From Chloroflexota bacterium (GTDB lineage: Bacteria > Chloroflexota > UBA6077 > FW602-bin22 > JAMCVK01), in NCBI GenBank assembly GCA_023475225.1, contig JAMCVK010000021.1:14132-78131 (forward strand): a stretch of DNA of 64,000 nucleotides. The letters are read 5' to 3'. The number at the start of each line of letters is the position of its first letter. The first letter of the stretch is position 1. Of this stretch, positions 5,961 to 27,086 are shown one piece after another. Both the position numbers and the translations under genes were made by a program. A model generated the notes under the pieces. It saw nothing but the letters and a program-made list of their open reading frames with translations, was not told where the DNA came from and searched no databases.

Positions 5961-7904
<1,944 letters not shown>

Positions 7905-7929
7905 CTAAGGGGATGCATGTTGGTGATTC

Positions 7930-8895
7930 CTAAACCTGCGCTGCGCGACTCTGATAGAAGAACATGCTGGCTGCTGTCAGCCCGGCAGCGATATAGGCAC
8001 TCCCTACCAGAGCGATGAGCGCCCCCAGCAGATGCTGGCTGATCGCTTCCCAGACCACCTGCATGCCCAAAGTGATGAGCACAGTCAAACCAACGAGCAC
8101 AAGGGCAGGCCATAGATTAGTGCTGACCACCCGTATGCTATTACCTAAGGCGCGCAGGGGTCCTACCTCACTGATGACGATAGCATCGACAGTAAAGAAA
8201 AGGTAGACACCGAGTACGGTCAGGGGTACCGATAGCAACAATCCGCTTAAGACGGGCAAAAACAGGTTGATCAGGGCGATGAAAAGGAGATAGGGCACAC
8301 CGATCACGATGCCTCCGAGCAAGAGGACGCCGATCAACCCCACCAGGCTGATCCAGCAACGCCAGGCTTGGGACCAGAGCAGGGTCAGGTCTATCTGACC
8401 ATCACGCACCTGCTGCCCGATCAGCGCAAGATAGAGGCAGCTGATGAAAAGCCCACTGGCGCTTAGAAGCAAGACCGTGATAAAGAGGATGAATGTTCTC
8501 TCTATCTCCAGAGTTGGCGGCGTGATGATGGTTATGTTTGGTACAAAGCTGGGAATAGCCGCGATATTGAACACTAGCAGTCCCAGGAGGTTGAACTTCT
8601 CTGCGGCTGCTTCCAAAGCGGGCTGCAACTGGTTGAACTGTTTAATGATCTCCTCGGCTATCGCCGCCGGCGTACGACCCTCTTTCAAATACAAAGGTAG
8701 GGATGCTGCATACCAGGCCAGGGCCTTGTTCACCAGAGGCGCAGCCGATAAGCGTGGGCCAAGCCATAGTAAGACATCCAAGGCCAGGGAGAACAACAAG
8801 ACCCAAAGTATGCGGTTGATGCGTTCAAAACCGGACCCGATGGTGTCAATCACCCCGGGCGTGTTACGCTCTGCTCTTCTCATCTCAATCACCAT
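7930..8895 (-). CDS. Polytopic membrane protein of unknown function
   Basis: 321-aa ORF with about 7 hydrophobic segments and no recognisable catalytic motif. Confidence 0.55.
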   Translation of the reverse strand: MVIEMRRAERNTPGVIDTIGSGFERINRILWVLLFSLALDVLLWLGPRLSAAPLVNKALAWYAASLPLYLKEGRTPAAIAEEIIKQFNQLQPALEAAAEKFNLLGLLVFNIAAIPSFVPNITIITPPTLEIERTFILFITVLLLSASGLFISCLYLALIGQQVRDGQIDLTLLWSQAWRCWISLVGLIGVLLLGGIVIGVPYLLFIALINLFLPVLSGLLLSVPLTVLGVYLFFTVDAIVISEVGPLRALGNSIRVVSTNLWPALVLVGLTVLITLGMQVVWEAISQHLLGALIALVGSAYIAAGLTAASMFFYQSRAAQV

Positions 8896-9029
8896 TCATT
8901 ATTTAGGGCTATTTTAGCACAAAACTGGCTGAGTTGGGGAGTACAGGTAGCCTGGCTAACCCTGGTTACCGTTTCGGTCGGTTCATGGTAACATACGAGT
9001 CGTGACATACTCAGCAGCGCAGGGAGACG

Positions 9030-11293: not shown

Positions 11294-12271
11294 TTGGCTG
11301 TCTTAGTGACGGGGGGTGCTGGTTATATCGGTAGTGTCGTCGTGGAAGAGCTGCTGAGGGATGGCCAGGAGGTGATCATCTGCGATAACCTATCTACCGG
11401 ACATCGCCAGGCCGTCCTGGAAGGAGCCATCTTCGTCCAGGCCGATCTATCTGATAGAACAGTGCTCACGGCCATCTTTCAGCATTACCCCATTGAGGCA
11501 GTCATCCACATGGCGGCGAGCAGCCTGGTGAGCGAATCAATGGTCGATCCAGCACCCTTTTTCTATAATAACCTCGTGAATGGCTGGAATCTACTCGAGA
11601 GCATGCGGGCCAATGGGGTGAAAAGGATCGTGTTCTCCTCAACAGCCGCCGTCTACGGGGAGCCCAAGAACATCCCCATCCGTGAGGATGACCCGCTGGA
11701 GCCAACCAACCCCTATGGGGAATCAAAACTCTCCCTGGAGCGGATGCTCCGCTGGTATGAACAGGCCTATGGCTTGCGCCATATCTCGCTGCGCTACTTC
11801 AACGCTGCGGGAGCTTCGGAGCAGCTAGGGGAAGACCATCGCCCGGAGACGCATCTCATCCCCGTCGTCTTGCAGACGGCCCTGGGACAACGCCTCTGGG
11901 TGGAGGTGTTCGGAACAGACTACGATACAGTAGATGGCACCTGTATCAGAGACTACATTCACGTGACTGATCTCGCCCTGGCCCACGTGCTGGCTTTGAA
12001 AGCGCTGGACGAGGGGCGCAGCGGCGTATATAACCTGGGCAATGGTGATGGCTTCTCTGTGTTGCAGGTCATCGAGACGGCGCGCCAGGTTACCGGGCGA
12101 GAGATACCGACCATCGTGAAGGGGCGCCGTCTGGGCGATCCAGCCATCCTGGTGGCCAGCTCGGAAAGGATCAGGTCCGAGTTAAACTGGCAGCCACGCT
12201 TCGCCGATCTAAAGACCATCATTCGCACGGCCTGGGAATGGCTCCAGAAGCACCCTGACGGCTACGTCTAG
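11294..12271 (+). CDS. galE: UDP-glucose 4-epimerase
   Basis: VLVTGGAGYIGS Rossmann motif, YGESK catalytic motif, RYFNAAGA. TTG at 11294 is preceded by GGAGGAGG. The upstream part of ORF 11144.. is repeat-derived. Confidence 0.9.
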   Translation: MAVLVTGGAGYIGSVVVEELLRDGQEVIICDNLSTGHRQAVLEGAIFVQADLSDRTVLTAIFQHYPIEAVIHMAASSLVSESMVDPAPFFYNNLVNGWNLLESMRANGVKRIVFSSTAAVYGEPKNIPIREDDPLEPTNPYGESKLSLERMLRWYEQAYGLRHISLRYFNAAGASEQLGEDHRPETHLIPVVLQTALGQRLWVEVFGTDYDTVDGTCIRDYIHVTDLALAHVLALKALDEGRSGVYNLGNGDGFSVLQVIETARQVTGREIPTIVKGRRLGDPAILVASSERIRSELNWQPRFADLKTIIRTAWEWLQKHPDGYV

Positions 12272-12304
12272 GGGACAATCCATATACAGGACGCTGTAAA
12301 GGAA

Positions 12305-12498
12305 GCGATGCCATCATGGCGCTCTTCAACGCCCCAATCCCTCAGCCTGAGCATCGGAGGGTGGCCCTGGAAGCAGCCATCGCCCTCCAGCAAAAGGCAG
12401 CTAGCCTGAATCTGCCCTTCGCCATTGGCATCGGCATCAACAGCGGCCTGGCCATAGTCGGCAATGTCGGCGGGGGAGAGGTGACAGATTACACAGCC
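12305..12498 (+). pseudogene. Internal fragment of a class III adenylate/guanylate cyclase domain (divergent copy of 15063-15259)
   Basis: Translates to AIMALFNAPIPQPEHRRVALEAAIALQ...GINSGLAIVGNVGGGEVTDYTA, paralogous to the intact cyclase at 14888-15448. It lacks both N- and C-terminal parts. Confidence 0.75.
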
Positions 12499-12797
12499 AG
12501 TTCCGCGGACAGGAACCACTCCACGGCTGCTCGACCATAGATGGGTTGAACGATCTGCTTGCCTTTTGGATACGGACTGGCAGCTTTGAACCCTACTTGC
12601 TCAAGCAGGTGGCGAACCTGAGCAAGTTCGCTCGGCGCCAACATCAGCCGGACTTCGTAACCCTTTTTATATTTTCTCCGGCCAAGCGCCTCGATGCGTT
12701 CCTTGTTTGCCACCCGTATGTAGCCCTTCCTTTGAAAGAACTGCTTCAACTGAACAGCTGGCTGTTCACTTGCGGCCGATTGGAGTAGATGATTCAT
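12489..12797 (-). CDS. Hypothetical protein (3' end runs into the cyclase-fragment junction)
   Basis: 102-aa ORF in an AT-richer cassette with no recognisable motif. Confidence 0.35.
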   Translation of the reverse strand: MNHLLQSAASEQPAVQLKQFFQRKGYIRVANKERIEALGRRKYKKGYEVRLMLAPSELAQVRHLLEQVGFKAASPYPKGKQIVQPIYGRAAVEWFLSAELAV

Positions 12798-13140
12798 GCT
12801 CTTCTCCTTTACCTTTGATCATTCATCTGTGGGGATCGGATTTGACCTCCAGGGCATACCTACGCCTGCTGGCGAGTGTCGCGGCTAACTAGTACTTAGA
12901 CTGTAATTTCGCTGTATAACACCCTAAATGGAGATGTTTTACACCAACTGTCATCTGAAAACATTATGAGGCAACCTATACCAGAAGTCAATCTACCTCC
13001 AGCCTCCTGACCACCCGTAACTGGCGATGATATACTTACTATTAGTAGAGATAATCAGGGGTCATACAAATGGTTATAGGACTGAAGAAAAGTGATGAGG
13101 AAATAAGCTGCTAGGTTGGAGCACTAAGGGGGTATTAGTC

Positions 13141-13380
13141 ATGAAAACTTTGAAGCTCAATTTTACAGTTCCTGAAGACGTAGCTGAGGCGTTGAAGGCT
13201 CGTGTCAGCAAACGCAAGCGCAGCGCCTTCGTCGCTGCGGCCGTTCTTGACAAGCTGCAGGAACTTGAACGGGAACAGCTCAGACAAGCTCTCATGGAGG
13301 GTTATCAGGCAAGGCGAGAAGAAAATACAGAGATTAACAGAGAATGGGAGGGAGCTACGCTGGAGGGATGGTCACGATGA
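13141..13380 (+). CDS. Ribbon-helix-helix (CopG-like) antitoxin
   Basis: MKTLKLNFTVPEDVAEALKARVSKRKRSAFVAAAV is a typical RHH N-terminus. It lies directly upstream of the PemK/MazF toxin gene. RBS AAGGGGG. Confidence 0.7.
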   Translation: MKTLKLNFTVPEDVAEALKARVSKRKRSAFVAAAVLDKLQELEREQLRQALMEGYQARREENTEINREWEGATLEGWSR

Positions 13381-13398
13381 CATGGGTTGGAGGTAACT

Positions 13399-13779
13399 AT
13401 GTCCCAGCGTGAGCCGAAGCCCATCCATGAGGCAGGTTTCCCCCGATATGGAGATATTTACGAGGTGAACCTTGACCCTGTTGTTGGGTCTGAAACTGGT
13501 AAGCATCGGCCGGCGCTAGTTGTTTCCAACGACATCAACAATGAATTCTCCCAGATCGTCACCGTCCTTCCTATTACCGGGCAGCCTGCCAAGAAACAGT
13601 ACCCTTTCGAAGTTCTCGTTCCCAAAGGCGTTGCGGGCCTCACCGTAGATTCTCAGATAAAGGCCAATCAGATTAGAACGGTGGATAAACGTCGCTTGGT
13701 CAGCTTCAGAGGCTCGCTGCCTTTACAATACCTTCCACAGGTAGAGAAGGCGCTGAAAATCCACCTGAATTTGAAATAG
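13399..13779 (+). CDS. mazF: Type II toxin, MazF/PemK family endoribonuclease
   Basis: YGDIYEVNLDPVVGSETGKHRPALVVSND...VTVLPITG...IKANQIRTVDKRRL matches MazF/PemK. ATG 13399 follows GGAGGT. Confidence 0.85.
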   Translation: MSQREPKPIHEAGFPRYGDIYEVNLDPVVGSETGKHRPALVVSNDINNEFSQIVTVLPITGQPAKKQYPFEVLVPKGVAGLTVDSQIKANQIRTVDKRRLVSFRGSLPLQYLPQVEKALKIHLNLK

Positions 13780-13814
13780 ATGGGGTTCACATCTGGACAG
13801 CGCTCAACCAGGAC

Positions 13815-14354
13815 GTGTTCAAATCTGAAAAGTTACTCAATGACTGGTTCTCCAAAGCGCTGGGCCCTGTCAACGGAATGATACATTTCTACCCTAGCGA
13901 GAGTCCCCCTGTGTCACAAGCCAGGTCAGCAGTCACAATAATGAAACAGCAATTCTCAAAGGCTACCCTGCCGGCCATTTATACGGGTGAAACCTTTGAG
14001 GCCAGGTTCGAAAGTAGTGGGGGACCAGGTGGTCGGGTAAGTATATCAGGACTGGAACCTGAGCCGAGCCAAGTCGTCAGCCAGTGGATTAAGCGTATAG
14101 TTGATAAAGGTAAGCAACTTCCTTCTGGTGAGGCAGAAGTTATTATTGGAAGCCCATTATTTCTCTGGGGCACTCGTGAGTGTGAAGCTGCAAACCAGGC
14201 TTTGGTAAACGCATTGACCAAGCAGCCTCATACACGAATCTCAGGCATAATCTTTCATGCCAAACATGTGGAAAACAGCAGCTTCTTAAAGCACGTCCCT
14301 GCCGTAGTGATAAACCCTAAGGCAACGGCCAGGTGTGATGAAGCACTCACTTAG
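13815..14354 (+). CDS. Hypothetical protein
   Basis: 179-aa ORF (GTG start) in the inserted cassette with no recognisable motif. It may be a truncated gene. Confidence 0.4.
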   Translation: MFKSEKLLNDWFSKALGPVNGMIHFYPSESPPVSQARSAVTIMKQQFSKATLPAIYTGETFEARFESSGGPGGRVSISGLEPEPSQVVSQWIKRIVDKGKQLPSGEAEVIIGSPLFLWGTRECEAANQALVNALTKQPHTRISGIIFHAKHVENSSFLKHVPAVVINPKATARCDEALT

Positions 14355-14380
14355 CTTGCTCACGCCCTTTTTCTGTACCC

Positions 14381-14457
14381 CGAGCTTCGCCGACCTGAAG
14401 ACAATCGTTGGCGCAGCCTGGAAACGGCTCCAAGGTCACTCTAACGGCTACGTCTAG
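14381..14457 (+). pseudogene. Remnant of a galE 3' end (divergent duplicate of 12195-12271)
   Basis: cgagcttcgccgacctgaagacaatcg...aacggctacgtctag aligns with the last ~25 codons plus stop of galE. The following gacaatccatatacaag also matches the sequence after the galE stop. Confidence 0.7.
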
Positions 14458-14506
14458 GTGACAATCCATATACAAGGTGCTATATTTAAGGGGGGAGGTG
14501 TGAAGG

Positions 14507-14728
14507 ATGCCCCAGTTCGTCTGTTGCGGTATAAATTTCGCCAGCGAGTCAACCTATATCGAGCACCGGCAAAAGGTCCATGGGGAGCAGCCCCAGGTAA
14601 AGTACACCTGCTGCGGGATAAGGTTTTACACCGCTGAGGGATATGGTGAGCATCGGCAGCAGGTGCATGGCGAGAGTGCGCCTAGCGCTCGAAAGGGTCT
14701 GCTTGCCAGGCTCTTCAAGAGATCGTAA
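14507..14728 (+). CDS. Small protein with two tandem CC-x12-H-x4-H (C2H2-like) zinc-finger repeats
   Basis: FVCCGINFASESTYIEHRQKVHGE and YTCCGIRFYTAEGYGEHRQQVHGE are repeated in tandem. A strong RBS GGGGGAGG lies upstream of the ATG. Confidence 0.6.
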   Translation: MPQFVCCGINFASESTYIEHRQKVHGEQPQVKYTCCGIRFYTAEGYGEHRQQVHGESAPSARKGLLARLFKRS

Positions 14729-14887
14729 ACTACCGAAAGGAGAAGGGTCATGAGGGCTGAAATCGTATACACGCGGTATTGTAAGGTGTGTCGCACCCCG
14801 ATCCGGGGTCTGCGGGCCCTCCCCTTCCGCCTGCGGGGGATAATGCCCTTCGCCAAAAATCCTAGTCTCTGCAATCGGTGAGGCAAG

Positions 14888-15448
14888 GTGCGCTTTCCTG
14901 CCGTGGAGCAGGAAATTACGGTCCTGTTCGCCGATGTCCGCGGTTTCACCTCCCTGGCTGAGCGGACACCTCTGGACCAATTACGGAAATCACTCAACGT
15001 TTTATTCGTCGCCGCCAGCGACCTTCTGATGCAACGAGATGCGCTGATAGACAAATTTCTGGGCGATGCCATTATGGCCCTCTTCAACGCTCCAATTCCT
15101 CAGTCCCAGCATCGGCAGGTGGCCCTTGAAGCAGCCATCGCCCTTCAGGAAGAGGTGGCGGGCTTGAATCTACCCTTTGCCATCGGGATCGGCATCAACA
15201 GTGGCCTAGCCATAGTCGGCAACGTCGGTGGGGGAGAGGTGACGGACTACACAGCCATCGGCGACACGGTGAACGTGGCGGCTCGTCTATCGGGCCTGGC
15301 CCAGAAGGGCGAGATCCTTGCTGGGGCCTCTACCTGTGAGGGACAGACCCATCTCCTCCCATCAGGGTATTCCTGTGAGCCGCTGAGCCTTCAAGTTAAG
15401 GGGAGAGAGGAGCCAGTAGCAGCCTATCGCCTCTATCCAGTCGGATGA
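14888..15448 (+). CDS. Class III adenylate/guanylate cyclase catalytic domain protein
   Basis: EITVLFADVRGFTSLAE, DKFLGDAIMALFNAP, GINSGLAIVGNVGG and TAIGDTVNVAARL motifs. An in-frame 43-codon CxxC mini-ORF (14750-14881) is separated from it only by TGA (see findings). Confidence 0.8.
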   Translation: MRFPAVEQEITVLFADVRGFTSLAERTPLDQLRKSLNVLFVAASDLLMQRDALIDKFLGDAIMALFNAPIPQSQHRQVALEAAIALQEEVAGLNLPFAIGIGINSGLAIVGNVGGGEVTDYTAIGDTVNVAARLSGLAQKGEILAGASTCEGQTHLLPSGYSCEPLSLQVKGREEPVAAYRLYPVG

Positions 15449-15831: not shown

Positions 15832-16854
15832 TTAGCCCTGCAACGATGGCGCTTCAGGTTGCGGAGGTGACGGCGGTGGCTGCTGAGGGAGTGGGACAGG
15901 TTGGGTTGGCGGTGGACCTTGGATAACAACCTGTTGAGCCAGCTTTATAAAGGCCCGCCCTTGATGGTTTTCTATTATCTTCGTAGCGGCAGTAGCCGAA
16001 AACGTATGCATGCAAGCGTGATAGGCAGTTAGCACCTTGTCTTGCAGGTTCTGGTCTGATTCGAGGAATTCTATCCTCATGCCCAATGATCTGAGATAAT
16101 TCCTATCAAGCGGCCGGCCATGAGTTCGAAGCTCTTCGTGGTCGCTGAGGGCGGAAGCGATTCGCTTTGCTCGCTCCTCCCGTTTGCGTGACCTTCGTAA
16201 CATCCATGTGGTGAGCCAGCTTGACACCAGTTCCCGAGACAACGCTATGGCATTTTCGCACTGTTCCAGAAGGGCTGGACCATACTGCTGCAGACTCGGC
16301 ACCCAGACAGCTAGGTTTGCCCTGTCCTCTGCGCACTCCCGCTTGGCACGGGCGAACTGATCCAGTATCGCTTGTGCAGGAACGGACTGAATACCCAGAG
16401 GAGTTGCAAGCTGAAATTGGGGGTCGATTGGACCCATGTAAGACTGGCGGCCCATGACAACTATATTGGCAGCACAGGCAAGCATCGTTGCGGCAGACAT
16501 CGCCTCATGAGGGACAAATACACGGATGTCCCGGAATTTGCTCCGCAAGTACTTTACGATAGCTTCGGTGGCCTCTGCGCGTCCACCAGGACTGTGCAGC
16601 ACGATGTCCAATTTTCGTCCTTGCAGACCGTAGAACACCTCCATGAAGCCTTCGATATCCTCATTGGTAATACTGAGAAGTTCAGGAGGCACCCTGGGCT
16701 TTTGGAGATGCCCGCTTGCGTATAGCACCACATTGCGCCCTGTATAACTAGCCAGGTCTGCCAGGGCCTCACGCCGTATTACATCGAGGGCATCCCTTCG
16801 TCCTTGTGCTTGGAGTTCCTGCAGCCTTCTTAGCAATTCCCCCCAGGTTGGCAT
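15832..16854 (-). CDS. SDH-family Clp-fold serine proteinase (SppA/ClpP-like) with Pro-rich C-terminal tail
   Basis: LDIVLHSPGGRAEATEAIVKYLR...VFVPHEAMSAATMLACAANIVVMGRQSYMGPIDPQ matches the serine dehydrogenase proteinase family. The tail is PPPTQPVPLPQQPPPSPPQPEAP. Confidence 0.75.
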   Translation of the reverse strand: MPTWGELLRRLQELQAQGRRDALDVIRREALADLASYTGRNVVLYASGHLQKPRVPPELLSITNEDIEGFMEVFYGLQGRKLDIVLHSPGGRAEATEAIVKYLRSKFRDIRVFVPHEAMSAATMLACAANIVVMGRQSYMGPIDPQFQLATPLGIQSVPAQAILDQFARAKRECAEDRANLAVWVPSLQQYGPALLEQCENAIALSRELVSSWLTTWMLRRSRKREERAKRIASALSDHEELRTHGRPLDRNYLRSLGMRIEFLESDQNLQDKVLTAYHACMHTFSATAATKIIENHQGRAFIKLAQQVVIQGPPPTQPVPLPQQPPPSPPQPEAPSLQG

Positions 16855-16869
16855 CCGCTACGCCCTTCT

Positions 16870-17082
16870 CTATTGGAGGTCAGACCGGTTGGAAGTCGTA
16901 ATAAGCGGCTCTTGCCGAGTCGCTTCCACATATTGCTGTACCTCGCGGATCATCTCCTCGTAGCCACCATAGACCTTGAGCAGGTCAGTGATGCCGGGGA
17001 ATTGCTGCTCTGCGCTTCTGAGCAAGCCCTTCACCTCAGATTCGGTGCCCCTGCGTGGCTTCCTATTTTGCAATGTCTCCAT
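16870..17082 (-). CDS. Small hypothetical protein, upstream partner of the Clp-fold protease
   Basis: 70-aa ORF with RBS GGGGGAGG, 15 nt upstream of the protease gene. No recognisable motif. Confidence 0.45.
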   Translation of the reverse strand: METLQNRKPRRGTESEVKGLLRSAEQQFPGITDLLKVYGGYEEMIREVQQYVEATRQEPLITTSNRSDLQ

Positions 17083-17220: not shown

Positions 17221-20200
17221 TTAGCCAGCCCAATCTTTGCATAACAATTCAGCTTGCTCCAGTACTGTCAGGGTGGCTTTTTCATGTTTATCTGGCGGGT
17301 AGCCGTACCGGCGAAGGAGTCGCTTGACCGCTATTCGCAACCTGGCGCGGACGCTCTCTCTGATCGTCCAGTCGATAGTGACATTGCGCCGAACCGTTTC
17401 TACGAGTTCACGTGCTATCGTCCTAAGCGTTTCGTCACCCAACACCTTCACCGCGCTATCGTTCACCTCGAGGGCGTCGTAGAACGCCTCCTCTTCTTCG
17501 CTTAGTCCCAGCTTTTCGCCCAGCGCTTTGGCATCGCGCATTTGCTTAGCCAGTTCGATGAGTTCTAGGATCACCTGGGCAGCCTCGATGGTACGATTCT
17601 GATATCTACGAATGGTGGTTTCAAGCATCTCGGCAAACGAACGGGACTGGACCAGGTTCTTTCTGGCTCGTGCCTTGATTTCGTCATTAAGGAGCTTCTG
17701 CAGCAACTCGAGGGCAAGATTACGATGTGGCATACCCTGCAGCTCTGTAAGGAACTCGTCAGACAGGATTGAGATATCCGGTTTCTTGAGACTGGCAGCG
17801 CTGAATATGTCGACTACCTCGTCAGAAGATACCGCTCTGGATACGATTTGACGAACAGCCGAATCCAACTCCTCTTCAGCTTTTCCTGGTAGCTGGGTGT
17901 TCTTGGCTATGGCCGCTCGTACCGTCTGGAAAAAGTCAACATCGTCCTTGATCTTAAGCGCTTCCCCATGAGGGACGGAGAGGGCGAAAGCCTTCGATAG
18001 CTCCGTTACGGCTTGCAGTAGCCGCACTTTTCCATCCTTCTGGCTCAAGATATGCTCCATAGCCGCAGGAATGATCGCCAGGCGCTCAGCTGGGGCACCG
18101 GTGATGAACTTAGAATAATCAAAGCCATGAAACATGCCACAGACGATCTCATACTTTTCGAGCATTATCGCCACCGCATCTTCCTGGGGGATTCCCGTGT
18201 CGCGGCGGGAGCCTTCCGTGTAGTCCATAAGGGCCTTTTTTAGCTCGTCGGCGATGCCCAGGTAATCAACCACCAGGCCTCCGGGCTTATCACGAAAGAC
18301 CCGATTTACACGGGCTATGGCCTGCATCAGGCCGTGGCCACGCATGGGCTTATCAATGTACATAGTGTGCAGGCAGGGCGCATCGAAGCCAGTGAGCCAC
18401 ATATCCCGAACGATGACTAGTTTCAATGAGCCTGCAGGGTCTTTCATCCGCTTCTTGATGAACTCCCGGCGTTCTTTGTTACGGATGTGAGGCTGAAAAT
18501 TCTGCGGGTCGCTTGCGGAGCCGGTCATGACTACCTTAATCACACCCTTATCGTCGTCTGGATGGTGCCAAGAGGGGCGAAGTTTGGTGATGGCGTCATA
18601 AAGGTCCACGCAGATATGCCGGCTCATGCACACTATCATCCCTTTGCCGTCTATAGCCTCCAGGCGTTGCTCGAAGTGCTCCACGATGTCCTTGGCCACA
18701 AGCCCTATCCGTTTCTCGGTCCCTACCATCGACTCAAGGCGGGCCCACTTGGTCTTAAGCCTCTCCCTGACAGTTTCCTCCTCACCTTCAGTAACCTCCT
18801 CGAAGTCAGGGTCTATGTGTGGCCTTTCCTCCTCCTTTAGTTCGAGCTTCGCCAGCCGCCCCTCATAGAAGATACGGACAGTAGCACCATCCTCCACTGC
18901 TCGCTGAATGTCGTAGATACTGATGTAGTCCCCGAATACCGCCGGGGTGCTTCTGTCGTCTTTTTCGATGGGGGTGCCAGTGAACCCTATGAACGAAGCA
19001 TTGGGGAGGGCATCTCGCATGTGGCGGGCGAAGCCATCGATGAAATCATACTGGCTGCGATGAGCTTCATCAGCAATGACGACGATATTGCGGCGGTCCG
19101 ACAGCAGCGGGAACCTCCCCCCACCCTCTGGGAGGAACTTCTGGATAGTGGTGAATACGATACCCCCAGAGGCTACCTTGAGGAGGTCTCTCAAATGCTC
19201 TCGGCTCTCGGCTTGCACAGGCTGCTGCCTGAGCAGATCATGGGCCAAGGCGAAGTTGCCAAAGAGCTGCTGGTCGAGGTCATTCCTGTCAGTCAATAAG
19301 ACCAGGGTAGGGTTCTCCATAGCCGGATGAAGGACGATCTTTCCGGCGTAGAACACCATCGTAAGGCTCTTGCCCGCACCCTGGGTATGCCATACCACGC
19401 CTACTCGCTTATCCCCCTTGGGCGATGTCGCCCCCACCGTGGCTGCTACTGCTGCATTGACGGCGTGATATTGATGATAGGCTGCTACCTTCTTGGCTAT
19501 CCTGGAGCCGTCTACCTCGAAAAGAATGAAGTGGCGCACCAGGTCAAGGAAGCGGCTCTTCTCGAACATGCCGTTGAGGAGCACCTCCAGCTCTGAGACA
19601 CCCTTCGGAGCAGCCGTGGCTCCGTCGCTGGTGCGCCAGGGGAGGAACCACTCCCAGCCCGCCGTCAGCGTTCCCACTCGGGCCTCGGTGCCATCGCTGA
19701 TGACCAGCAACTCGTTATAGGGGAAAAGAGACGGGATGTCCGTCTTGTAGGTCTGAAACTGGTTGAACGCAGCCTTAATGGTGGCGTTCTCGTCGACCGG
19801 ATTCTTCAGCTCTATCACTGCAAGGGGGAGACCATTGACAAAAACTACCAGGTCGGAGCGGCGGTTATGCTGCCCTTCGATAACGGTGAACTGATTGACC
19901 ACCAGCCAGTCGTTCCGGTCTGGGTTGGCAAAATCCACCAGCCAGACCTTGTCGCCCACGATGCGCCCCTCTTCGTTGCGATACTCCACATCCACGCCCT
20001 CAGTCAGCATCTTGTGGAACTGACGGTTGTTGACCATGAGGCTGGGGCTATCAGGGCGGGTGACCTTTCTGAAGGCGTCTTCCAGAGCCTCGGTAGGAAT
20101 ATCCGGGTTCAACGAGGCCAGGGCAGAGCGCAGCCTTTCTACCAGCACTACTTCCGAGTAGTTTCTGCGCTCGGGATGTGGGCCGTCGCAGGCAATGTCC

Positions 20201-20289
20201 GGCCCAGGCAAATGCTGATAGCCGAGACCCTTGAGCCAGTCAATGGTGGCTTCTTCTACTACGGACTCAGTGAGGACGTGCTGGATCAT
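17221..20289 (-). CDS. hsdR: Type I restriction enzyme, R subunit
   Basis: 1022 aa. N-terminal nuclease region ([15 protein letters not shown]), helicase motifs GAGKS and ADEAHRSQ, plus TGTPI and the C-terminal HsdR domain. Confidence 0.95.
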
Positions 20290-21077
20290 GGCGCCGTGCC
20301 CCCTTTGAGACGTCTTACGAGGCCAGTTTCGCTCTCGTGTTTGTCCCGGATTCTAAACGCCAACTGACCTTGCACAGGTGAGTCATCCCAGGTGCGACCC
20401 TGCAGCAGGCGTCCGGCACGCTTCTTACTCACCCCTCCCCACTGTTTGAAGAAAAATGGCACGCTAGCCGCCAGACACTGTTCCCTGATTTGTGTTACCC
20501 AGTTCTCTCTTACAGGCCTTGCCCCTGGCCCCGACTCACCGCCGACTATCACCCAGTGGATCCCATGAAGATCCAGGTCTGGCAGCGGTCCTAGTAACGG
20601 TTCGAGAGACAAAAACCTTGTTCGGGCACTGGTCTGGCGCAGATGGTCAGCACGGAAGATGTAATCCATATTTTCGATGCTGACACCCATCCACACATTC
20701 TCGGGCCAGTGAATCGCTGAGTTAAGTTCGAGCAAACGCTGTGATCGTTTCGTAAGAATCTGAAATTGGTGCCACCAAGCGCGCCGCATGACATCGAAAA
20801 CCTTCAAGATGAATGGCACAGGAACGTCTTCGTGGAACAAATCGCTCATAGAATTAACAAAAATCATCAGTGGCTTCTTCCAGCTTAGCGGTGCCTCTAA
20901 TACAGGCTCATGCAACGTCAGTTTGAATCCATTTGAGTAATTAGGTTGCCCCATCGCTTGCAGCCGGAACGCCATTCTCTCAGCGTAGCAATGCTTGCAT
21001 CCGGGACTGACCTTAGTGCAGCCCGTTAGTGGGTTCCACGTGGAATCGGTCCACTCGATGGAAGATTTCGTCGCCAT
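20286..21077 (-). CDS. DUF5131 (phage Gp37/Gp68 family) protein with N-terminal three-Cys motif
   Basis: [28 protein letters not shown] (C-x6-C-x2-C), ...[11 protein letters not shown]..., [25 protein letters not shown] and FFFKQWGG are typical of the family. Its stop overlaps the hsdR start (ATGA). Confidence 0.85.
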
Positions 21078-21079
21078 AG

Positions 21080-22213
21080 CTATATGTTACCCTTCGATGG
21101 AAACATGACCGTTACTGTGTCCGCAAATGTAGATTCACCCTTGCGCCTGCGCTGCTGATCTGCAGGAGGGTCGGCTGAAACCTTACCTTGGGCCTCAAGT
21201 CTTGCGAGAACATCCTTATAATTGGATTTGATATAGGGCGTTCCGACATGATGCTGATTGTACACCTCCAGCATTGTCATCTTCCGGCTAGCAAAGTCAT
21301 TCAGCAGCATACCTTCGAGATCATCAAGTGGTCGTGAAAGATCAAAAAGCAAGGGTTGGCTGCGCGTGGCCGGGTTGTATTCGAAGGATGGCACGCCTTG
21401 TTGTGCGCTTGAGCTTTCCTTAGCCATAATTTCCTTCATGATTTCGTAGCCTTTGATATGCTTGCTAACAAAAACCAAATGATGACTAGTGCGGTTGCCA
21501 CTGCCGTTCTTGAAACGGAATGGCAGGACGTACTCGCCGCCCATTTCCTTAAGTGCTTCGGCAAGGGCTTCAACAATAGTCAACTCTCGCTTGTGAGGTC
21601 GCATAGGCTCGAGTTGCTCCCGGAGCTTATCTGCGCGTTCTTTGCCAAAAAGGGCGTTCATGTGTTCTTTAACAGATTCGTTATTAAACCCCATATTGAT
21701 GCGGTTATAGTTAAAGAAAACAATACAATCACAACCCCAATCCTTAAGCACCAAGTTAATGAGACGAAGTGATAGTCCCTTGTAGCCCCAAGGGTCCACA
21801 AAAAAGAGGGTGGGGACAAGGCGCATCTGTTCAAACATCTTGACTATTTCTTCCCCAACTAGCGCGTTGTAAACTTGTGGCTTGTGCCTGAGCACTTTTA
21901 TACCTGGAATCGAATCAATAGCTTGGCAGAGCGTCTGAGTATTGTTCGAATCCGCATCGTTAAAAATGGTAACTAGCATTTCTCGCATATCTGGGTCCTG
22001 AATCGCACGTTCTAGGACAAGCAATGGTGTGGACTTTGTCCCGTCCTTATAGCGACCTGGCCCAGCAAACAGGTCTATGTAAGCGATTTTGTTCCCCCTT
22101 CCTTTTTGAGACGGAATAATCACCTTAGCCCAAGCCCAGAAGTATTTTGCAACTATTTCAGCCTTAACCTGGGACTGCTCTTGAGACTCGTCAAAGAAAG
22201 AGTTGCCGGTCAT
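21080..22213 (-). CDS. tcmP: Three-Cys-motif partner protein TcmP-like (Rossmann/methyltransferase-like)
   Basis: N-terminal [30 protein letters not shown] (SAM-binding motif I-like), [10 protein letters not shown] (motif IV-like). Positioned next to DUF5131, as is typical for this family. Its start overlaps the hsdS stop (ATGA). Confidence 0.75.
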
Positions 22214-23487
22214 GCTATCGCCTCCACGAACTTCTCCGCATCCTTCACCCGTATCTCCCCGGACAGGAGCTTGGGCAATAGGCTAGCTCGGATAGCACCA
22301 AGGGCTTGGGATTCGTCATCGTTAGCTTTCATCTTTTGAAACCAGGGCTTCACCTGTTGCTCGAACCGTTCGGCGATAGAGGGCAAGGGAACTGCCACCC
22401 AGTAATGGTCAAAACAGCCAGGGTCGACACGCTGGCGGCCAGACGTTCCGGTCATTGCCTGGATAGCATGGGCCCGAAAGTCAGGATGCCGGGCAAGACA
22501 GTAATTGAAAGGCATACCCAGAGGAGGCTTTGGCCCTAGCACAATGAATTCAGTGGAGCCCCAGCCAATCTCCCCATCTTGTAGAAAGTCGACTACTGCG
22601 GTCTTGCCATTTTCCAGGCAGGGTGTTATGCGGGCTAGTAGAACATCACCGTTGGCGAAACGTGATCCTGAACCAGAGAACGGCCTCCTAATCGTTTCCA
22701 ACACACGTGCTGATGCTGTGGGTAGAGCAGACATATCAACATAGACGGCGTTCGCTCCCCGCTCAAGTCTGCGAGGTGGGTTAATACCGACCGCTTCGGC
22801 AACAGTAGCGCACCGCCATCCCTTTGGTATTGGCCCCACGAGAGAATCCTGCATTCCCTGGTCTCGGAAAGGCTCAAGGCCCACAAACCAACTCTTGAAG
22901 AGGGCCCCGGCCATTGCCTCCAGGGTCTCGTTCATGCGGCGGTTCAGCTCAATCTTGTCATCCAGCGCCCCCAAGATGGCAGCGATGGCCCGCTGCTCTG
23001 GGAGGGGAGGAAGGGGAATCTTGATAGTCTTCAGGTACGTTACCGGCTGTGCGATCGACGGAACCCCCACTTGGGCTGCATTGGCCAGAAGCTTGTGTTG
23101 TCCTTCTGCTGTCTTGAAGTAGTACACCACAAACTGGGGGATAACGTGTTGAGGGTTGCAGCGCATGTAGAACTGCCGTTGGGAAATGACATAGCGCTCG
23201 TATCGTGAGTTCCAAGGAATATACGAGACCTGCCCGATATTACCAGCGTGGGTGAAGACCACATCCCCCCTCTGGACGTTTGCATTCTTCAGCCGGTCTG
23301 CGTGCTCGGGAGTGATGAAGTTGAATCCGGGCGTCTCGTCAAGTCTGGAGTCATGAAGGTGTTGGCCACTAATAACTGGGACGCCTTCGGAAACAAATGT
23401 CTCAACCTTGATTGATGAGCCGAAAGGCCCCATCGCTACCTTCTCTGCGACTTCACCAATCGAGGCGGTGTGCCACTCACCGGACAT
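22210..23487 (-). CDS. hsdS: Type I restriction-modification system, S (specificity) subunit
   Basis: Two target-recognition domains separated by the conserved LPPLPEQRAIAAILGALDDKIELNRRMNETLEAMAGALFKSWF helix, plus a C-terminal conserved helix. Confidence 0.9.
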   Translation of the reverse strand: MSGEWHTASIGEVAEKVAMGPFGSSIKVETFVSEGVPVISGQHLHDSRLDETPGFNFITPEHADRLKNANVQRGDVVFTHAGNIGQVSYIPWNSRYERYVISQRQFYMRCNPQHVIPQFVVYYFKTAEGQHKLLANAAQVGVPSIAQPVTYLKTIKIPLPPLPEQRAIAAILGALDDKIELNRRMNETLEAMAGALFKSWFVGLEPFRDQGMQDSLVGPIPKGWRCATVAEAVGINPPRRLERGANAVYVDMSALPTASARVLETIRRPFSGSGSRFANGDVLLARITPCLENGKTAVVDFLQDGEIGWGSTEFIVLGPKPPLGMPFNYCLARHPDFRAHAIQAMTGTSGRQRVDPGCFDHYWVAVPLPSIAERFEQQVKPWFQKMKANDDESQALGAIRASLLPKLLSGEIRVKDAEKFVEAIA

Positions 23488-23524: not shown

Positions 23525-24040
23525 TCAGCTCAACTTCACTCCCAGGGCACGAAGCATCTCAAATGTATCAATGTACCGAATGTTGAATGCCCGGCAGACA
23601 TTGGGAATCGGAATCCTCCGCCTCACGTTGGCATCAAACCGTTCAAGCGTCACGATGACGCATCCCCTCGCCTTAGCATACGCGATCAGCCAGCCATCCA
23701 CCGCGCTGGCAAACTCAGCCTTGGCCGCGTCGGTAAACTGGCTCTGACCCTGAGCCCAAGTCATGACCTGACGATAAGCTTGAACAACATCATCGTGACC
23801 CGTTGACTCAAACCACTGGTGGAAACTACCATTTGCCCATTGCTTGAGGTCATCCTTACCTCGGTCAATTTCCACCTTGATGCGGTCAATGCTCTGAACC
23901 TGGCCACTTTCCGCATGCTCAATTAATTGCTCCCAGAAGCGCGGGGCAATGTCGAAAGCGTAGTACCGACGTGCCGCCTCTATGAACACGTTAGCATCCA
24001 GGAGATACACGGGCAGAAGATACACGGGAAGGGCGGTCAC
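23525..24040 (-). CDS. DUF4411 (PIN-like) protein
   Basis: YLLDANVFIEAARRYYAFDIAPRFWEQL...WLIAYAKARGCVIVTLE fits the DUF4411/PIN-like pattern. The GTG start overlaps the ImmA-like gene stop (GTGA). The true start may be slightly downstream. Confidence 0.7.
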   Translation of the reverse strand: MTALPVYLLPVYLLDANVFIEAARRYYAFDIAPRFWEQLIEHAESGQVQSIDRIKVEIDRGKDDLKQWANGSFHQWFESTGHDDVVQAYRQVMTWAQGQSQFTDAAKAEFASAVDGWLIAYAKARGCVIVTLERFDANVRRRIPIPNVCRAFNIRYIDTFEMLRALGVKLS

Positions 24041-25230
24041 ACCAGCGCTCCTGAGGCGAGGAATCTCCCATACCTCTCAAATGTCTGTCCGTAAAGCCCT
24101 GTTAGCTCGTAGGCTTCTCGGTAGAGAAGATTGCCCTCTCTTACAGCGCGCATCACTGCTTCCGCAAAGCGCCGACCGAGGCGGAGATTCTGGGTGGCGT
24201 AGAAGTTGCCGCCCTCTTGACCTCGTGCAGCAGCCGAGCGCTCGGCTTGCTGATAGGCAACATAGAAGTCTAGAAACTCGTGTTTGGTGATGAGACCCAG
24301 ATCGAGAGCCTTGCGAGCGCCGACGACTTCGCTGACCTTGAACTGGCGAGCGATGGCTTGGAAAGGGTCAGGCCCTTGTTTGATGAATGGCCACATCTCT
24401 TGTAGCTCATCTCTCGGGACCAGGAACTCAGCGGCAACCTGGCTGCAAGCCCGTTCCGTCTCGTCGTCCGCGGGTTGAAGTTCCCGCAAGTCAAATGCAG
24501 CACTGCTACCGAACCATATATGCGCCAGCTCGTGTGCCAGCGTGAACATCTGCGCAGCCTTGCTGTCGGCACCGTTGACAAAGACCAACGGTGCATACTC
24601 ATCCACCAGGATGAAGCCACGAAACTCGGTGACGTTCAACTTGCGATGCGGATTGTTTCCAACGATGCTGTTCACGACCACAAGGATCCCGGCCTCCTCT
24701 ATCCTGCTCTGTAGCTCTCGCAGCGCCTCAGTCCAAGTGGACTGTTGGGCCGTCCATCCTTGAGCGAGACCCAATGTGCGCCTCATCTCGCGAGCCAACC
24801 CCTCCGCTATGTCCGTGAGCCGTGCAGAGCGGACAAAGCTCAACGGTTCGTGACCTTGTTCCGTCAGATACTCCCGCATCCATGCTTGGCGGCGCTCCAT
24901 CATCTGGATGGTCTCAAGCAGGTCAGGACTGGACCGGCGTAGAGGCTCATCGCCCAGCGTGCGGAAGTGGGGAACAGGCAATCGCTCCTGGGGCGGCTCA
25001 GAAAGGAACAGGTATCCCAGCGGGGTCGAGGTGGCCTTCGCGAGCTCCTCAAGCTGACGCAGCGTCGGTCGGCTCTTACCGCTGAGCCACTCCGGCAGCT
25101 TGGGGAACTTCCGCGCGACGGCTCCTGGGCTGCCCGAGCGCTCCATAGCCCAGCGGAGGACAGGCTCACTGATGGTGACCCGCGTCATGCTGCGATGTCC
25201 TTTCTCAGCCTGCATTCGAGTTCTGGCCAC
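24037..25230 (-). CDS. HTH(XRE)-ImmA/IrrE family zinc metallopeptidase fusion
   Basis: N-terminal HTH-like segment (PTLRQLEELAKATSTPLGYLF) and an HEXXH motif (AHELAHIWFG) in a COG2856-like domain. The GTG start abuts the hsdM stop. Confidence 0.8.
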   Translation of the reverse strand: MARTRMQAEKGHRSMTRVTISEPVLRWAMERSGSPGAVARKFPKLPEWLSGKSRPTLRQLEELAKATSTPLGYLFLSEPPQERLPVPHFRTLGDEPLRRSSPDLLETIQMMERRQAWMREYLTEQGHEPLSFVRSARLTDIAEGLAREMRRTLGLAQGWTAQQSTWTEALRELQSRIEEAGILVVVNSIVGNNPHRKLNVTEFRGFILVDEYAPLVFVNGADSKAAQMFTLAHELAHIWFGSSAAFDLRELQPADDETERACSQVAAEFLVPRDELQEMWPFIKQGPDPFQAIARQFKVSEVVGARKALDLGLITKHEFLDFYVAYQQAERSAAARGQEGGNFYATQNLRLGRRFAEAVMRAVREGNLLYREAYELTGLYGQTFERYGRFLASGALV

Positions 25231-26850
25231 TTACCCGCCATGCCCCAACCCCCTCAGGTTCTGGCGAATCACCGCCTCAAGCCTGGCTGACTCAGCGAAC
25301 TGCTCCTCCAGTTTCCCCGTCAGCCGTGATATCTTCTCCTCAAAGGGTTCGTCTTCGTCCTCTATGTCCTCAGCCCCCACATAGCGGCCTGGAGTGAGCA
25401 CATGGCTGTGGGCGGCGATTTCCTCGGTGGAGGCCGACTTGCAGAAACCCGGAATGTCCTGGTACGACTCCACACCCTCGTCTCCCCGCCAGGCGTGGTA
25501 CGTCCCAGCAATGCGGGCTATATCCTCGTCGGTGAGCTCCCGGTGCACCCGGTCAATCATGCGCCCCATCCTGCGGGCATCAATGAAAAGGACCTGGCGG
25601 CGGCGATCACGAAACCAGCGGTTGCGCTTGTCTCGGGCCAGGAACCAGAGACAAGCGGGTATCTGGGTGTTATAGAATAGCTGGCCGGGGAGGGCTACCA
25701 TGCAGTCCACCAGGTCGGCCTCAATGATGTTCCTGCGGATTTCCCTCTCTCCAGATTGATTAGAGGACATAGAGCCATTGGCCAGCACGAAGCCCGCCAG
25801 GCCGGTGGGGGTGAGGTGGTGGATGAAGTGTTGTACCCAGGCGAAGTTGGCGTTGTTTACCGGGGGCACGCCGTATTTCCAGCGGACGTCCTCACGGAGC
25901 TGCTCACCACCCCAGTCGTTGTCATTAAAAGGCGGATTGGCGAGGATGAAATCGGCCCTCAGGTCCTTGTGCAGGTCGTTCCTGAAGGAGTCTGCGTTGC
26001 GTGGGCCAAGATTGCCCTCTATGCCACGGATGGCCAGGTTCATCTTGCACAGTCGCCAGGTGGTGTGGTTCGACTCCTGCCCGTAGATGGAGATGTCGCC
26101 GATGCGGCCGCCGTGGGCCTCAACGAATTTCTCGCTCTGGACAAACATGCCGCCCGACCCGCAACAGGGATCAAAGACACGGCCCCTATAAGGTGCCAGC
26201 ATCTCGACCAGCAGGCGAACGATGCAGCGAGGCGTGTAGAACTGACCCCCTTTCTTGCCTTCGGCGCTAGCGAATTGGCCGAGGAAGTATTCATAGACAC
26301 GGCCTAGAATGTCCTTGGAGCGGTTTTCAGCATCCCCCAGGCCGATGGAGCTGATAAGGTCGATAATCTCCCCCAATCGCTGCTTGTCCAGGGCCGGGCG
26401 GGCGTAGTCCTTGGGAAGCACACCTTTTAGGGACAGATTGTCCCGCTCTATGGCGACCAGGGCATCATCCACCAGCTTGCCGATGGTTGGTTGTTTGGCG
26501 TTGGCCTGGAGATACCGCCAGCGGGCCTCCCGGGGCACCCAGAAAACACTGGCAGCGACGTACTCATCACGATCCTCGAGGAGTTCATATCGGGCCTGCG
26601 GCTCTTTGATGTAGTATCCGTGCGAAGGATCGGAGGTCCACAGACGGAGCTGCTGGTAGTGCTCCTGGAAAGCATCGGAAACGTATTTCAAGAAGATAAG
26701 GCCCAGGACCACATGCTTGTACTCCGCCGCATCCATATTGCTGCGCAGCTTGTCAGCAGCCTGCCAGAGCTTCTCCTCGAAGCCGAGATTGGCCCCGTTG
26801 GACTTCTGGACCCTGTAGCTAGTCAGGCTTGAACTTCTCCTTCTTGCCAC
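25231..26850 (-). CDS. hsdM: Type I restriction-modification system, M (N6-adenine methyltransferase) subunit
   Basis: HsdM N-terminal domain ([32 protein letters not shown]), motif I (DPCCGSGGM) and motif IV (LANPPFN). GTG start with GGAGG 6 nt upstream. Confidence 0.95.
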
Positions 26851-27011: not shown

Positions 27012-27086
27012 TGGTGGAGGCGAGGGGATTCGAACCCCTGACTTCTTGCATGCGAAGCAAGCGCTCTCCCACTGAGCTACGCCCCC
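27012..27086 (-). tRNA. tRNA-Ala (anticodon CGC), CCA encoded
   Basis: The reverse complement folds as a cloverleaf: GGGGGCG-TA-GCTC-AGTGGGA-GAGC-G-CTTGC-TTCGCAT-GCAAG-AAGTC-AGGGG-TTCGAAT-CCCCT-CGCCTCC-ACCA. It has the G3:U70 Ala identity pair. Confidence 0.92.

Follow-up and report, generated by a model that had tools for sequence, protein, structure and literature searches.

The adjacent genes for TcmP (three-Cys-motif partner protein) and a DUF5131 (Gp37/Gp68 family) protein, which sit between hsdS and hsdR of a type I restriction-modification (R-M) operon in contig JAMCVK010000021.1 of a Chloroflexota bacterium (GenBank assembly GCA_023475225.1), probably form an autonomous, mobile, two-enzyme nucleic-acid-modifying cassette that occupies a cargo slot of the operon and is neither a subunit of HsdMSR nor its obligate guard. 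We put the probability of this reading at roughly 0.6. The DNA analyzed, referred to here as the window, is the whole 64,000-nucleotide stretch from position 14,132 to 78,131 of the contig, and the coordinates of its features count from its first nucleotide. What the present analysis adds to published knowledge of the pair are fold readings for both proteins, the constancy of a radical S-adenosylmethionine (SAM) partner, locations outside R-M systems, and alternative cargo in the same operon slot.

Profile searches were decisive for the family names, which had been proposed in a preliminary description of this DNA. TcmP matched TIGR04474 over positions 1 to 262 of the 263-position model (232 bits, cutoff 53; E = 1e-68), and the DUF5131 protein matched PF07505 over the entire model, 1 to 243 of 243 (338 bits, cutoff 28.9; E = 4e-101). 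In PADLOC, TcmP matched PDC-M30A (3e-28) and PDC-M41A (1e-6), while the DUF5131 protein matched PDC-M41B (3e-118) and PDC-M30B (4e-113); for both PDC-M30 and PDC-M41, the two component models match adjacent genes. These PDC candidates come from a "guilt-by-embedding" approach, in which genes lying inside type I R-M, BREX, and DISARM operons were gathered (Payne et al. 2024, bioRxiv 10.1101/2024.01.29.577857), and Table S8 of that study gives PDC-M30 and PDC-M41 as two cassettes with a common B family, FAM_00989 (bioRxiv 10.1101/2024.01.29.577857). The window holds the same two families in the same order as PDC-M30/PDC-M41 (Payne, Hughes, Fineran, Jackson 2024), and nothing structural differs. 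The pair is a clean new example of an already catalogued anti-phage candidate, for which both the embedding logic and the candidate itself have been published. The preliminary description, which took the two families to be annotated merely as a partner pair, is outdated in this respect, since DUF5131 is a radical SAM subgroup and the pair corresponds to PDC-M30/PDC-M41. A term search of the main text of Payne et al. returned no analysis of the fold or mechanism of either candidate.

The genes of the operon, all on one strand, are as follows.

25231-26850, minus strand: hsdM, methyltransferase subunit, the first gene of the operon (PF02384, E = 4e-110; PF12161)
24037-25230, minus strand: M78/ImmA-IrrE-type peptidase-regulator of 397 amino acids (PF06114, E = 1e-13; weak PADLOC matches to CapP and RmrA)
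23525-24040, minus strand: DUF4411 protein (PF14367, E = 8e-57)
22210-23487, minus strand: hsdS, specificity subunit (PF01420; PADLOC Specificity_I, E = 4e-115)
21080-22213, minus strand: TcmP, 377 amino acids (TIGR04474; PF22560; PADLOC PDC-M30A)
20286-21077, minus strand: DUF5131/Gp37-Gp68 family protein, 263 amino acids (PF07505; PADLOC PDC-M41B/PDC-M30B)
17221-20289, minus strand: hsdR, restriction subunit (TIGR00348, E = 5e-194; PADLOC REase_I)

With hsdM, hsdS, and hsdR together on the minus strand, the operon is a type I R-M operon, read in the order hsdM, M78 peptidase, DUF4411, hsdS, TcmP, DUF5131, hsdR. The open reading frames (ORFs) and junctions around the pair were exactly as first described: an ATGA at 22213-22210 is common to the hsdS stop and the TcmP start, 2 nucleotides (CT) separate the TcmP stop (TAG) from the DUF5131 ATG at 21077, and a second ATGA at 20289-20286 is common to the DUF5131 stop and the hsdR start. 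Start codons for TcmP and DUF5131 are called correctly, because the N-termini agree with the homologue consensus. Shine-Dalgarno-like sequences were seen by eye 7 to 9 nucleotides 5' of the TcmP (GGAGG) and hsdR (GGGGG) starts, and a promoter and terminator scan inside the operon gave matches at chance level only. The pair is also lower in GC content, at 0.470 for TcmP and 0.529 for DUF5131 versus 0.591 for hsdM, 0.553 for hsdS, and 0.555 for hsdR; the AT-richness that had been noticed by eye is thus borne out by computation, though it is uneven between the two genes. A lower GC content in TcmP than in the adjacent hsdR was found in the window and in five comparison loci (L053, L040, L090, L126, and L088; comparison loci carry L numbers throughout), which is consistent with a foreign cassette.

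Operons whose hsdR is 81 to 86% identical to that of the window hold other genes between hsdS and hsdR.

L169 (Dehalococcoides mccartyi): TcmP, DUF5131, and GmrSD
L166: GmrSD (the region upstream is cut off)
L167: three small ORFs and an SMC-like ATPase
L168: DUF3800 and two small ORFs

Together with the lower GC content, this alternative cargo in the same slot of related operons upholds the suggestion of a cassette insertion in the preliminary description and marks the pair as acquired horizontally. Nearly all of the listed junctions in these sister operons overlap, most of them by 4 nucleotides, and translational coupling is therefore a property of the hsdS-hsdR slot. The overlaps around TcmP and DUF5131 had been taken as a sign of translational coupling into the restriction operon. 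They are real, but genes of this operon family ordinarily meet in 4-nucleotide overlaps, regardless of which cargo is present, so that the overlaps show operon membership rather than special coupling.

The same slot has a precedent for a guard, and one alternative is that the pair is an R-M accessory, providing either a second self-mark read by HsdR or a neighboring nuclease or a PrrC-like guard that the type I complex keeps silent and that fires when a phage inhibits the enzyme. Translational coupling between hsdS and hsdR would fit such a role, as would co-inheritance with the operon in L086, where identity to the window is 77 to 78% for TcmP and 78 to 79% for DUF5131, compared with 76% for hsdM and 80% for hsdR. 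Since this divergence matches that of hsdM and hsdR, the pair is no recent arrival in that sublineage. PrrC is a guard found in exactly this slot, and the likeness extends to RloC: both are cargo between hsdS and hsdR of type I operons and are cotranscribed with them. PrrC, however, is a single ATPase-nuclease that depends on R-M and is nearly always embedded, whereas family and PADLOC profile searches detected no nuclease or RNase effector domain in TcmP or DUF5131, and the pair lies mostly away from R-M. Sister operons that carry other cargo in the slot, or none of this kind, also speak against an accessory function.

Two observations concern the other occupants of the slot. A GmrSD type IV restriction gene directly follows DUF5131, with 4-nucleotide overlaps on both sides, in L169 (5240-9004), L086 (4795-8562), L087, and L089, where it could either be cargo in its own right or act in concert with the pair. 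In L167, whose hsdR is 86% identical to that of the window, the slot holds a 788-amino-acid SMC_N/AAA_23 ATPase (6638-9004) that recalls RloC-type cargo in its size and domains; a reverse-transcriptase gene lies just after hsdR in the same locus.

The distribution of the pair was assessed in a neighborhood survey of 160 TcmP-seeded loci from genomes and metagenomes. The two genes were convergent in 79 loci, co-directional with TcmP first in 56, and co-directional with DUF5131 first in 5. Genes of type I or type III-like R-M systems were found within two genes of the pair in ~14 of 61 co-directional loci and in essentially 0 of 79 convergent loci; among viral loci, R-M adjacency was seen in 5 of 12. 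By a rough estimate, made without a controlled statistic, the ~14 of 61 is far above what would be expected of a random gene. Co-directional pairs occupy type I operons from three or more hsdR lineages (L040, L041, L053, L086, L087, L089, L090, L133, L134, and L158), and the recurrence of this placement in three unrelated lineages (32%, 68%, and 80% hsdR identity) and also in an EcoEI-type operon favors an accessory role, as does the position of the pair in type III-like systems (L088, L111, and L126), where a res-like gene (ResIII helicase/endonuclease) precedes it and a mod-like gene (N6_N4 methyltransferase) follows. Most pairs, however, have no R-M gene within 10 kb, and PrrC differs from the pair in being embedded almost exclusively in R-M systems (Payne et al. 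2024, bioRxiv 10.1101/2024.01.29.577857). The near-exclusive occurrence in type I R-M operons that would mark a PrrC-like guard is not found for TcmP and DUF5131.

Outside R-M systems, the 79 convergent pairs are mostly cyanobacterial and sit between housekeeping genes, in oxoprolinase, ndhD/thrB, and ileS contexts. In Gordonia phages WelcomeAyanna and Angelique, the integrase and immunity repressor genes flank a convergent pair whose TcmP gene is co-directional with the repressor; such a position is the usual slot for lysogeny-expressed genes in phages. Prophage defense in Gordonia phage CarolAnn was considered as a related case and set aside, as it involves a different gene pair and the corresponding paper leaves the methyltransferase and DUF5131 genes unaddressed. 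A convergent pair in a Rhodococcus plasmid is flanked by a zeta toxin gene and Wadjet-like genes, the TcmP gene of Sinorhizobium meliloti adjoins the validated defense gene Hna, and IMG/VR contigs have the pair beside R-M genes and also beside prophage recombinases. Defense neighbors of the pair comprised type I and type III-like R-M systems, GmrSD, TOTE, and Wadjet-like genes. A search of plasmids yielded 16 distant matches only, and pSymA was not recovered at that sensitivity. In L026, a UvrD-family helicase beside the pair (12034-14892) holds an intein (Intein_splicing and Hint matches).

The pair is strongly linked to R-M genes in the co-directional and viral loci, although most pairs lie away from R-M. 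The proposal that it forms an additional layer of the type I enzyme is not supported, in view of the 79 convergent loci lacking R-M, the Gordonia phage position, and the unrelated cargo (DUF3800, SMC-like ATPase, and GmrSD) in sister operons; nor is the idea of a PrrC-style guard, given that the pair is mostly outside R-M and the slot is interchangeable at 81 to 86% hsdR identity. A role as subunit, second modifier, or obligate guard is unlikely, since R-M genes are missing near most pairs and the contents of the slot are interchangeable, and we consider the R-M accessory explanation as a whole improbable.

In the survey, a radical SAM companion of TcmP was constant. DUF5131 adjoined TcmP in 78 of 80 genome loci, as it does in the window, where 2 nucleotides separate them; the two remaining loci were a contig end and L050, with a canonical Radical_SAM gene. 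Nearly all apparent "solo" TcmP cases in the 160 loci were likewise contig ends. Where DUF5131 was truly missing, the neighbor of TcmP was a canonical PF04055 Radical_SAM protein (L050/L121 and L183; 10001-12270 in L050). On the Halopiger plasmid pHALXA02 (L172, 3320-7110), two radical SAM proteins of the COG1533/PA0069/Rv2578c type adjoin TcmP and there is no DUF5131. Since TcmP is found beside radical SAM proteins other than DUF5131, the conserved partnership is that of TcmP with some radical SAM enzyme of this clade. Pairwise identities of TcmP and DUF5131 were correlated (r = 0.71, Mantel P = 0.001, 126 pairs), which points to co-inheritance, and partner swaps were also seen (L104-L108).

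A second alternative is that the pair is a self-contained R-M-like or addiction module, in which methylation by TcmP would protect the carrier DNA and the radical generated by DUF5131 would damage unprotected DNA. The convergent layout, with sometimes overlapping 3' ends, in cyanobacteria, actinobacterial plasmids, and Gordonia phages resembles that of many type II R-M systems; the pair is a small two-gene unit dispersed among housekeeping genes; a winged helix-turn-helix (wHTH) on the methyltransferase-like partner could be autoregulatory; and the radical SAM partner belongs to the clade of spore photoproduct lyase, which acts on DNA. Three findings make the module unlikely in our view. On two IMG/VR contigs (L185, 3915-7241; L186, 7430-10756), a Mutator-family insertion sequence (IS) transposase splits TcmP while the downstream DUF5131 ORF is intact, which leaves the presumed toxic partner beside a broken protective one. 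DUF5131 occurs solo in ~175 phage genomes. Finally, TcmP has no variable target-recognition block and is 63 to 78% identical across phyla, unlike the diversifying specificity of R-M systems.

The features on which the protein-level reading is based are as follows.

22049-22075, minus strand: TcmP motif I, D47-L-F-A-G-P-G-R-Y55, predicted SAM-binding loop after beta-1 (invariant in 47 homologues)
21782-21805, minus strand: TcmP motif IV-like segment, F137-F-V-D-P-W-G-Y144, after beta-4 (D140, P141, W142, G143, and Y144 invariant in 47 homologues)
21161-21382, minus strand: TcmP C-terminal winged helix-turn-helix, residues 278-351 (PF22560)
20988-21020, minus strand: DUF5131 cysteine triad, C20-x6-C27-x2-C30, putative [4Fe-4S] site (invariant in 45 close homologues)

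The motifs pointed out in the preliminary description (DLFAGPG, FFVDPWGY, and C-x6-C-x2-C) are real, with key residues invariant in the 47 TcmP and 45 DUF5131 homologues, and those of both proteins are retained in relatives at 27 to 55% identity. In gp42 of a Gordonia phage, which is 27% identical to TcmP, motif I reads DGFAGRGRY and motif IV reads VDPFGY.

An AlphaFold2 (AF2) model of TcmP (predicted local distance difference test score [pLDDT], 73.5) begins with a class I SAM-methyltransferase fold, after which come a helical region and a winged helix. Foldseek comparison of this model with the PDB placed RlmJ at the top (6qe5/4blv, E = 1e-4); Trm1, TrmB, and further SAM methyltransferases came next, and these top matches had a probability of 1.00. 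In sequence, RlmJ chains were the sole matches of the TcmP profile in the PDB, at E ~1, which is insignificant alone, and single-protein searches of the PDB gave only noise. The alignment of the TcmP profile with RlmJ nevertheless falls at motif I, where the RlmJ segment FLYLDTHAGAGRY contains D-T-H-A-G-A-G-R-Y. Both the model and the sequence thus place TcmP among proteins with a class I Rossmann methyltransferase fold and a glycine-rich motif I. The likeness to RlmJ, the 23S ribosomal RNA methyltransferase for N6-methyladenosine (m6A) 2030, includes the shared D-x-x-A-G-x-G-R-Y of motif I, a conserved N-terminal helix of TcmP at the place of RlmJ motif X, and an acidic-Pro motif after beta-4.

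The canonical motif IV, (D/N)-P-P-(Y/F/W), is not present in TcmP, which has D-P-W-G-Y, with the second Pro replaced. Motif IV of RlmJ is 164-DPPY-167, its active site resembles those of DNA m6A methyltransferases, and the PROSITE pattern requires P-P (PMC3814359). TcmP accordingly departs from RlmJ and DNA m6A methyltransferases in reading DP(W/F)GY instead of DPPY, in carrying an extra C-terminal wHTH, and in the marginal sequence similarity (E ~1). The wHTH matched PF22560 (GMT-wHTH; 70 bits against a cutoff of 27; E = 2e-19). The Pfam name "GMT-like wHTH" was considered as a link to the Gamma-Mobile-Trio (GMT) and rejected, as the GMT paper includes no TcmP, wHTH, or methyltransferase, and a further literature search on the origin of the name found nothing. 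As modeled, TcmP has an RlmJ-like, m6A-type SAM-methyltransferase fold with a C-terminal winged helix.

Conservation of TcmP is even along its length, with an entropy of 0.46 to 1.70 bits per 20-residue block in 126 sequences and no hypervariable block, whereas hsdS in the same operons drops to 32 to 50% identity. Given this uniform conservation and the lack of a variable specificity block, the target of TcmP is probably a fixed feature rather than a diversifying sequence specificity. The family comprises 3,165 clusters at 50% identity, from bacteria, archaea, and phages. A check for domain fusions was uninformative, since the best 150 of 3,165 representatives were nearly all ~365 to 385 amino acids long, with full-length, single-stretch matches.

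For DUF5131, the sequence points to a minimal (~240-amino-acid) radical SAM superfamily protein with an invariant C-x6-C-x2-C. DUF5131 is a curated subgroup of the radical SAM superfamily (SFLD/RadicalSAM.org), in the megacluster of spore photoproduct lyase (PMC9477430). Besides PF07505, the protein matched TIGR04471 rSAM_mob_pairA (radical SAM "mobile pair protein A") at E = 6.5e-20, below the model cutoff. The three conserved N-terminal cysteines, predicted to be able to ligate a [4Fe-4S] cluster, are also invariant in solo phage homologues at 44 to 59% identity. Their spacing is not the canonical C-x3-C-x2-C, and PF04055 had no match in the window protein at E <= 0.01; a homologue in L183 bridges the two families, matching both PF04055 (7e-12) and DUF5131 (1e-4). 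The AF2 model of DUF5131 (pLDDT, 73.4) may represent a partial (beta/alpha)6 TIM barrel, and its resemblance to lipoyl synthase and spore photoproduct lyase is weak; confidence is low for the last ~25 residues, which also lack conservation, and a search of PDB sequences with the DUF5131 profile gave noise. The closest known relatives in kind are spore photoproduct lyase, which acts directly on DNA, and the COG1533-type proteins (PA0069/Rv2578c): both belong to the same RadicalSAM.org megacluster and have weak fold matches, and COG1533-type proteins take the place of DUF5131 beside TcmP on the archaeal plasmid. DUF5131 differs from them in its much smaller size (~240 amino acids), in having C-x6-C-x2-C instead of C-x3-C-x2-C, and in going unseen by Pfam Radical_SAM. 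The earlier idea that the pair consists of nucleic-acid enzymes gains from these results, at the level of sequence and models: an RlmJ-like fold carrying motif I plus a variant of motif IV on one side, and a radical SAM three-Cys site on the other.

The same relationships bear on a third alternative, in which the pair is a nonimmune, mobile module for nucleic-acid repair or housekeeping-type modification that merely travels with defense islands. DUF5131 clusters with spore photoproduct lyase and with proteins of the COG1533 "DNA repair photolyase" type, TcmP finds its closest structural match in a ribosomal RNA methyltransferase, light-exposed cyanobacteria very commonly carry the pair between housekeeping genes, and solo DUF5131 is found in replication and recombination regions of phages. 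Recurrent embedding in R-M operons and cargo positions in prophages, near lysogeny genes and integrases, are less easily accommodated, as is a patchy distribution driven by horizontal transfer, with 63 to 78% identity across phyla. Decaying and IS-disrupted copies are, moreover, typical of accessory rather than core genes. Overall, we regard a repair or housekeeping module as unlikely.

Under the preferred reading of an autonomous mobile cassette, the pair would have landed in the variable hsdS-hsdR slot and would owe its expression to read-through from the other genes of the type I R-M operon. TcmP would dock on nucleic acid and present a flipped base; DNA may be a somewhat likelier substrate than RNA, considering the wHTH and the likeness of the pocket to those of DNA m6A methyltransferases. 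DUF5131 would bind a [4Fe-4S] cluster, cleave SAM to the 5'-deoxyadenosyl radical, and abstract a hydrogen on the substrate presented by TcmP, so that the two proteins would jointly carry out a two-step, SAM-derived modification. Glycyl-radical-type activation of TcmP by DUF5131 was dropped as a candidate, as VDPWGYKG was judged by eye to misfit the RVxG(Y/F) fingerprint of such proteins. The role would most likely be phage or plasmid defense independent of HsdMSR, with a product that either marks self or harms the invader. A more specific proposal, which we offer as doubtful, is that the two are nucleic-acid-directed immune enzymes, with an RlmJ-like base-flipper that would present DNA or a conserved RNA and a minimal radical SAM enzyme that would install a modification or lesion. 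If true, the pair would be of a new kind and could work as radical-based "restriction" or as a mark-and-destroy scheme read by GmrSD, whose gene comes next after the pair in the nearest sister operons.

Several points weigh against this reading. The defense role of the pair is by association only, and a search of the accessible literature found no experiment on the pair. Because motif IV of TcmP is noncanonical, it cannot be taken for granted that a methyl group goes to an exocyclic amine. Confidence in the two AF2 models is moderate (pLDDT ~73), and the Cys loop of DUF5131 is poorly modeled. Many pairs have purely housekeeping neighbors. Phage records contain DUF5131 in 180 cases and TcmP in only 5, and in ~175 of the 180 DUF5131 is solo, among early and replication genes, which fits DNA metabolism or repair as well as defense. 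The tight tie to type I and type III-like R-M, and to GmrSD in the nearest relatives, could still reflect a functional link.

Other features of the window lie around the pair rather than within it. The M78 and DUF4411 genes (23525-25230), joined by a 4-nucleotide overlap, are a second two-gene cassette in the same operon, between hsdM and hsdS, which is not present in sister operons L086 and L169. Directly upstream of the operon, 160 nucleotides before hsdM, is a tRNA gene.

27012-27086, minus strand: tRNA-Ala(CGC) (ARAGORN and Rfam)

It is preceded by a perfect TTGACA-17-TATAAT promoter at 27123-27095. The R-M island abuts the 3' end of this tRNA-Ala gene, which is a candidate site of island insertion; no att-type repeat of the tRNA-Ala 3' end that would delimit the island was found within the window, and there was no integrase within 10 kb. 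Just 3' of hsdR (15832-17082, minus strand) are a 70-amino-acid ORF without a family match and a gene for an SDH-type ClpP-like serine protease (PF01972; phrog_11747, E = 8e-86), which may be another small accessory pair. Farther along, two direct-repeat families link 12198-12499 with 14384-15257 on the plus strand (195 nucleotides at 86% and 101 nucleotides at 80% identity); they flank a guanylate-cyclase-domain gene (14888-15448) and resemble a partial gene duplication.

To our knowledge, viperin-like enzymes (pVips) are the only validated radical SAM anti-phage system. pVips share with TcmP/DUF5131 a construction around a radical SAM enzyme, but they belong to another radical SAM family, turn free nucleotides into chain terminators, and are not known to work with a methyltransferase-like or DNA-binding protein. 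The instance in the window itself brings no new principle. It is a cleanly coupled example, and the sister operons that hold other cargo in the slot are natural controls for it. A widespread pair in which a radical SAM enzyme is coupled with a partner that is methyltransferase-like and DNA-binding could bring to light a novel modification of DNA or RNA, or a novel route by which invading nucleic acid is disabled.

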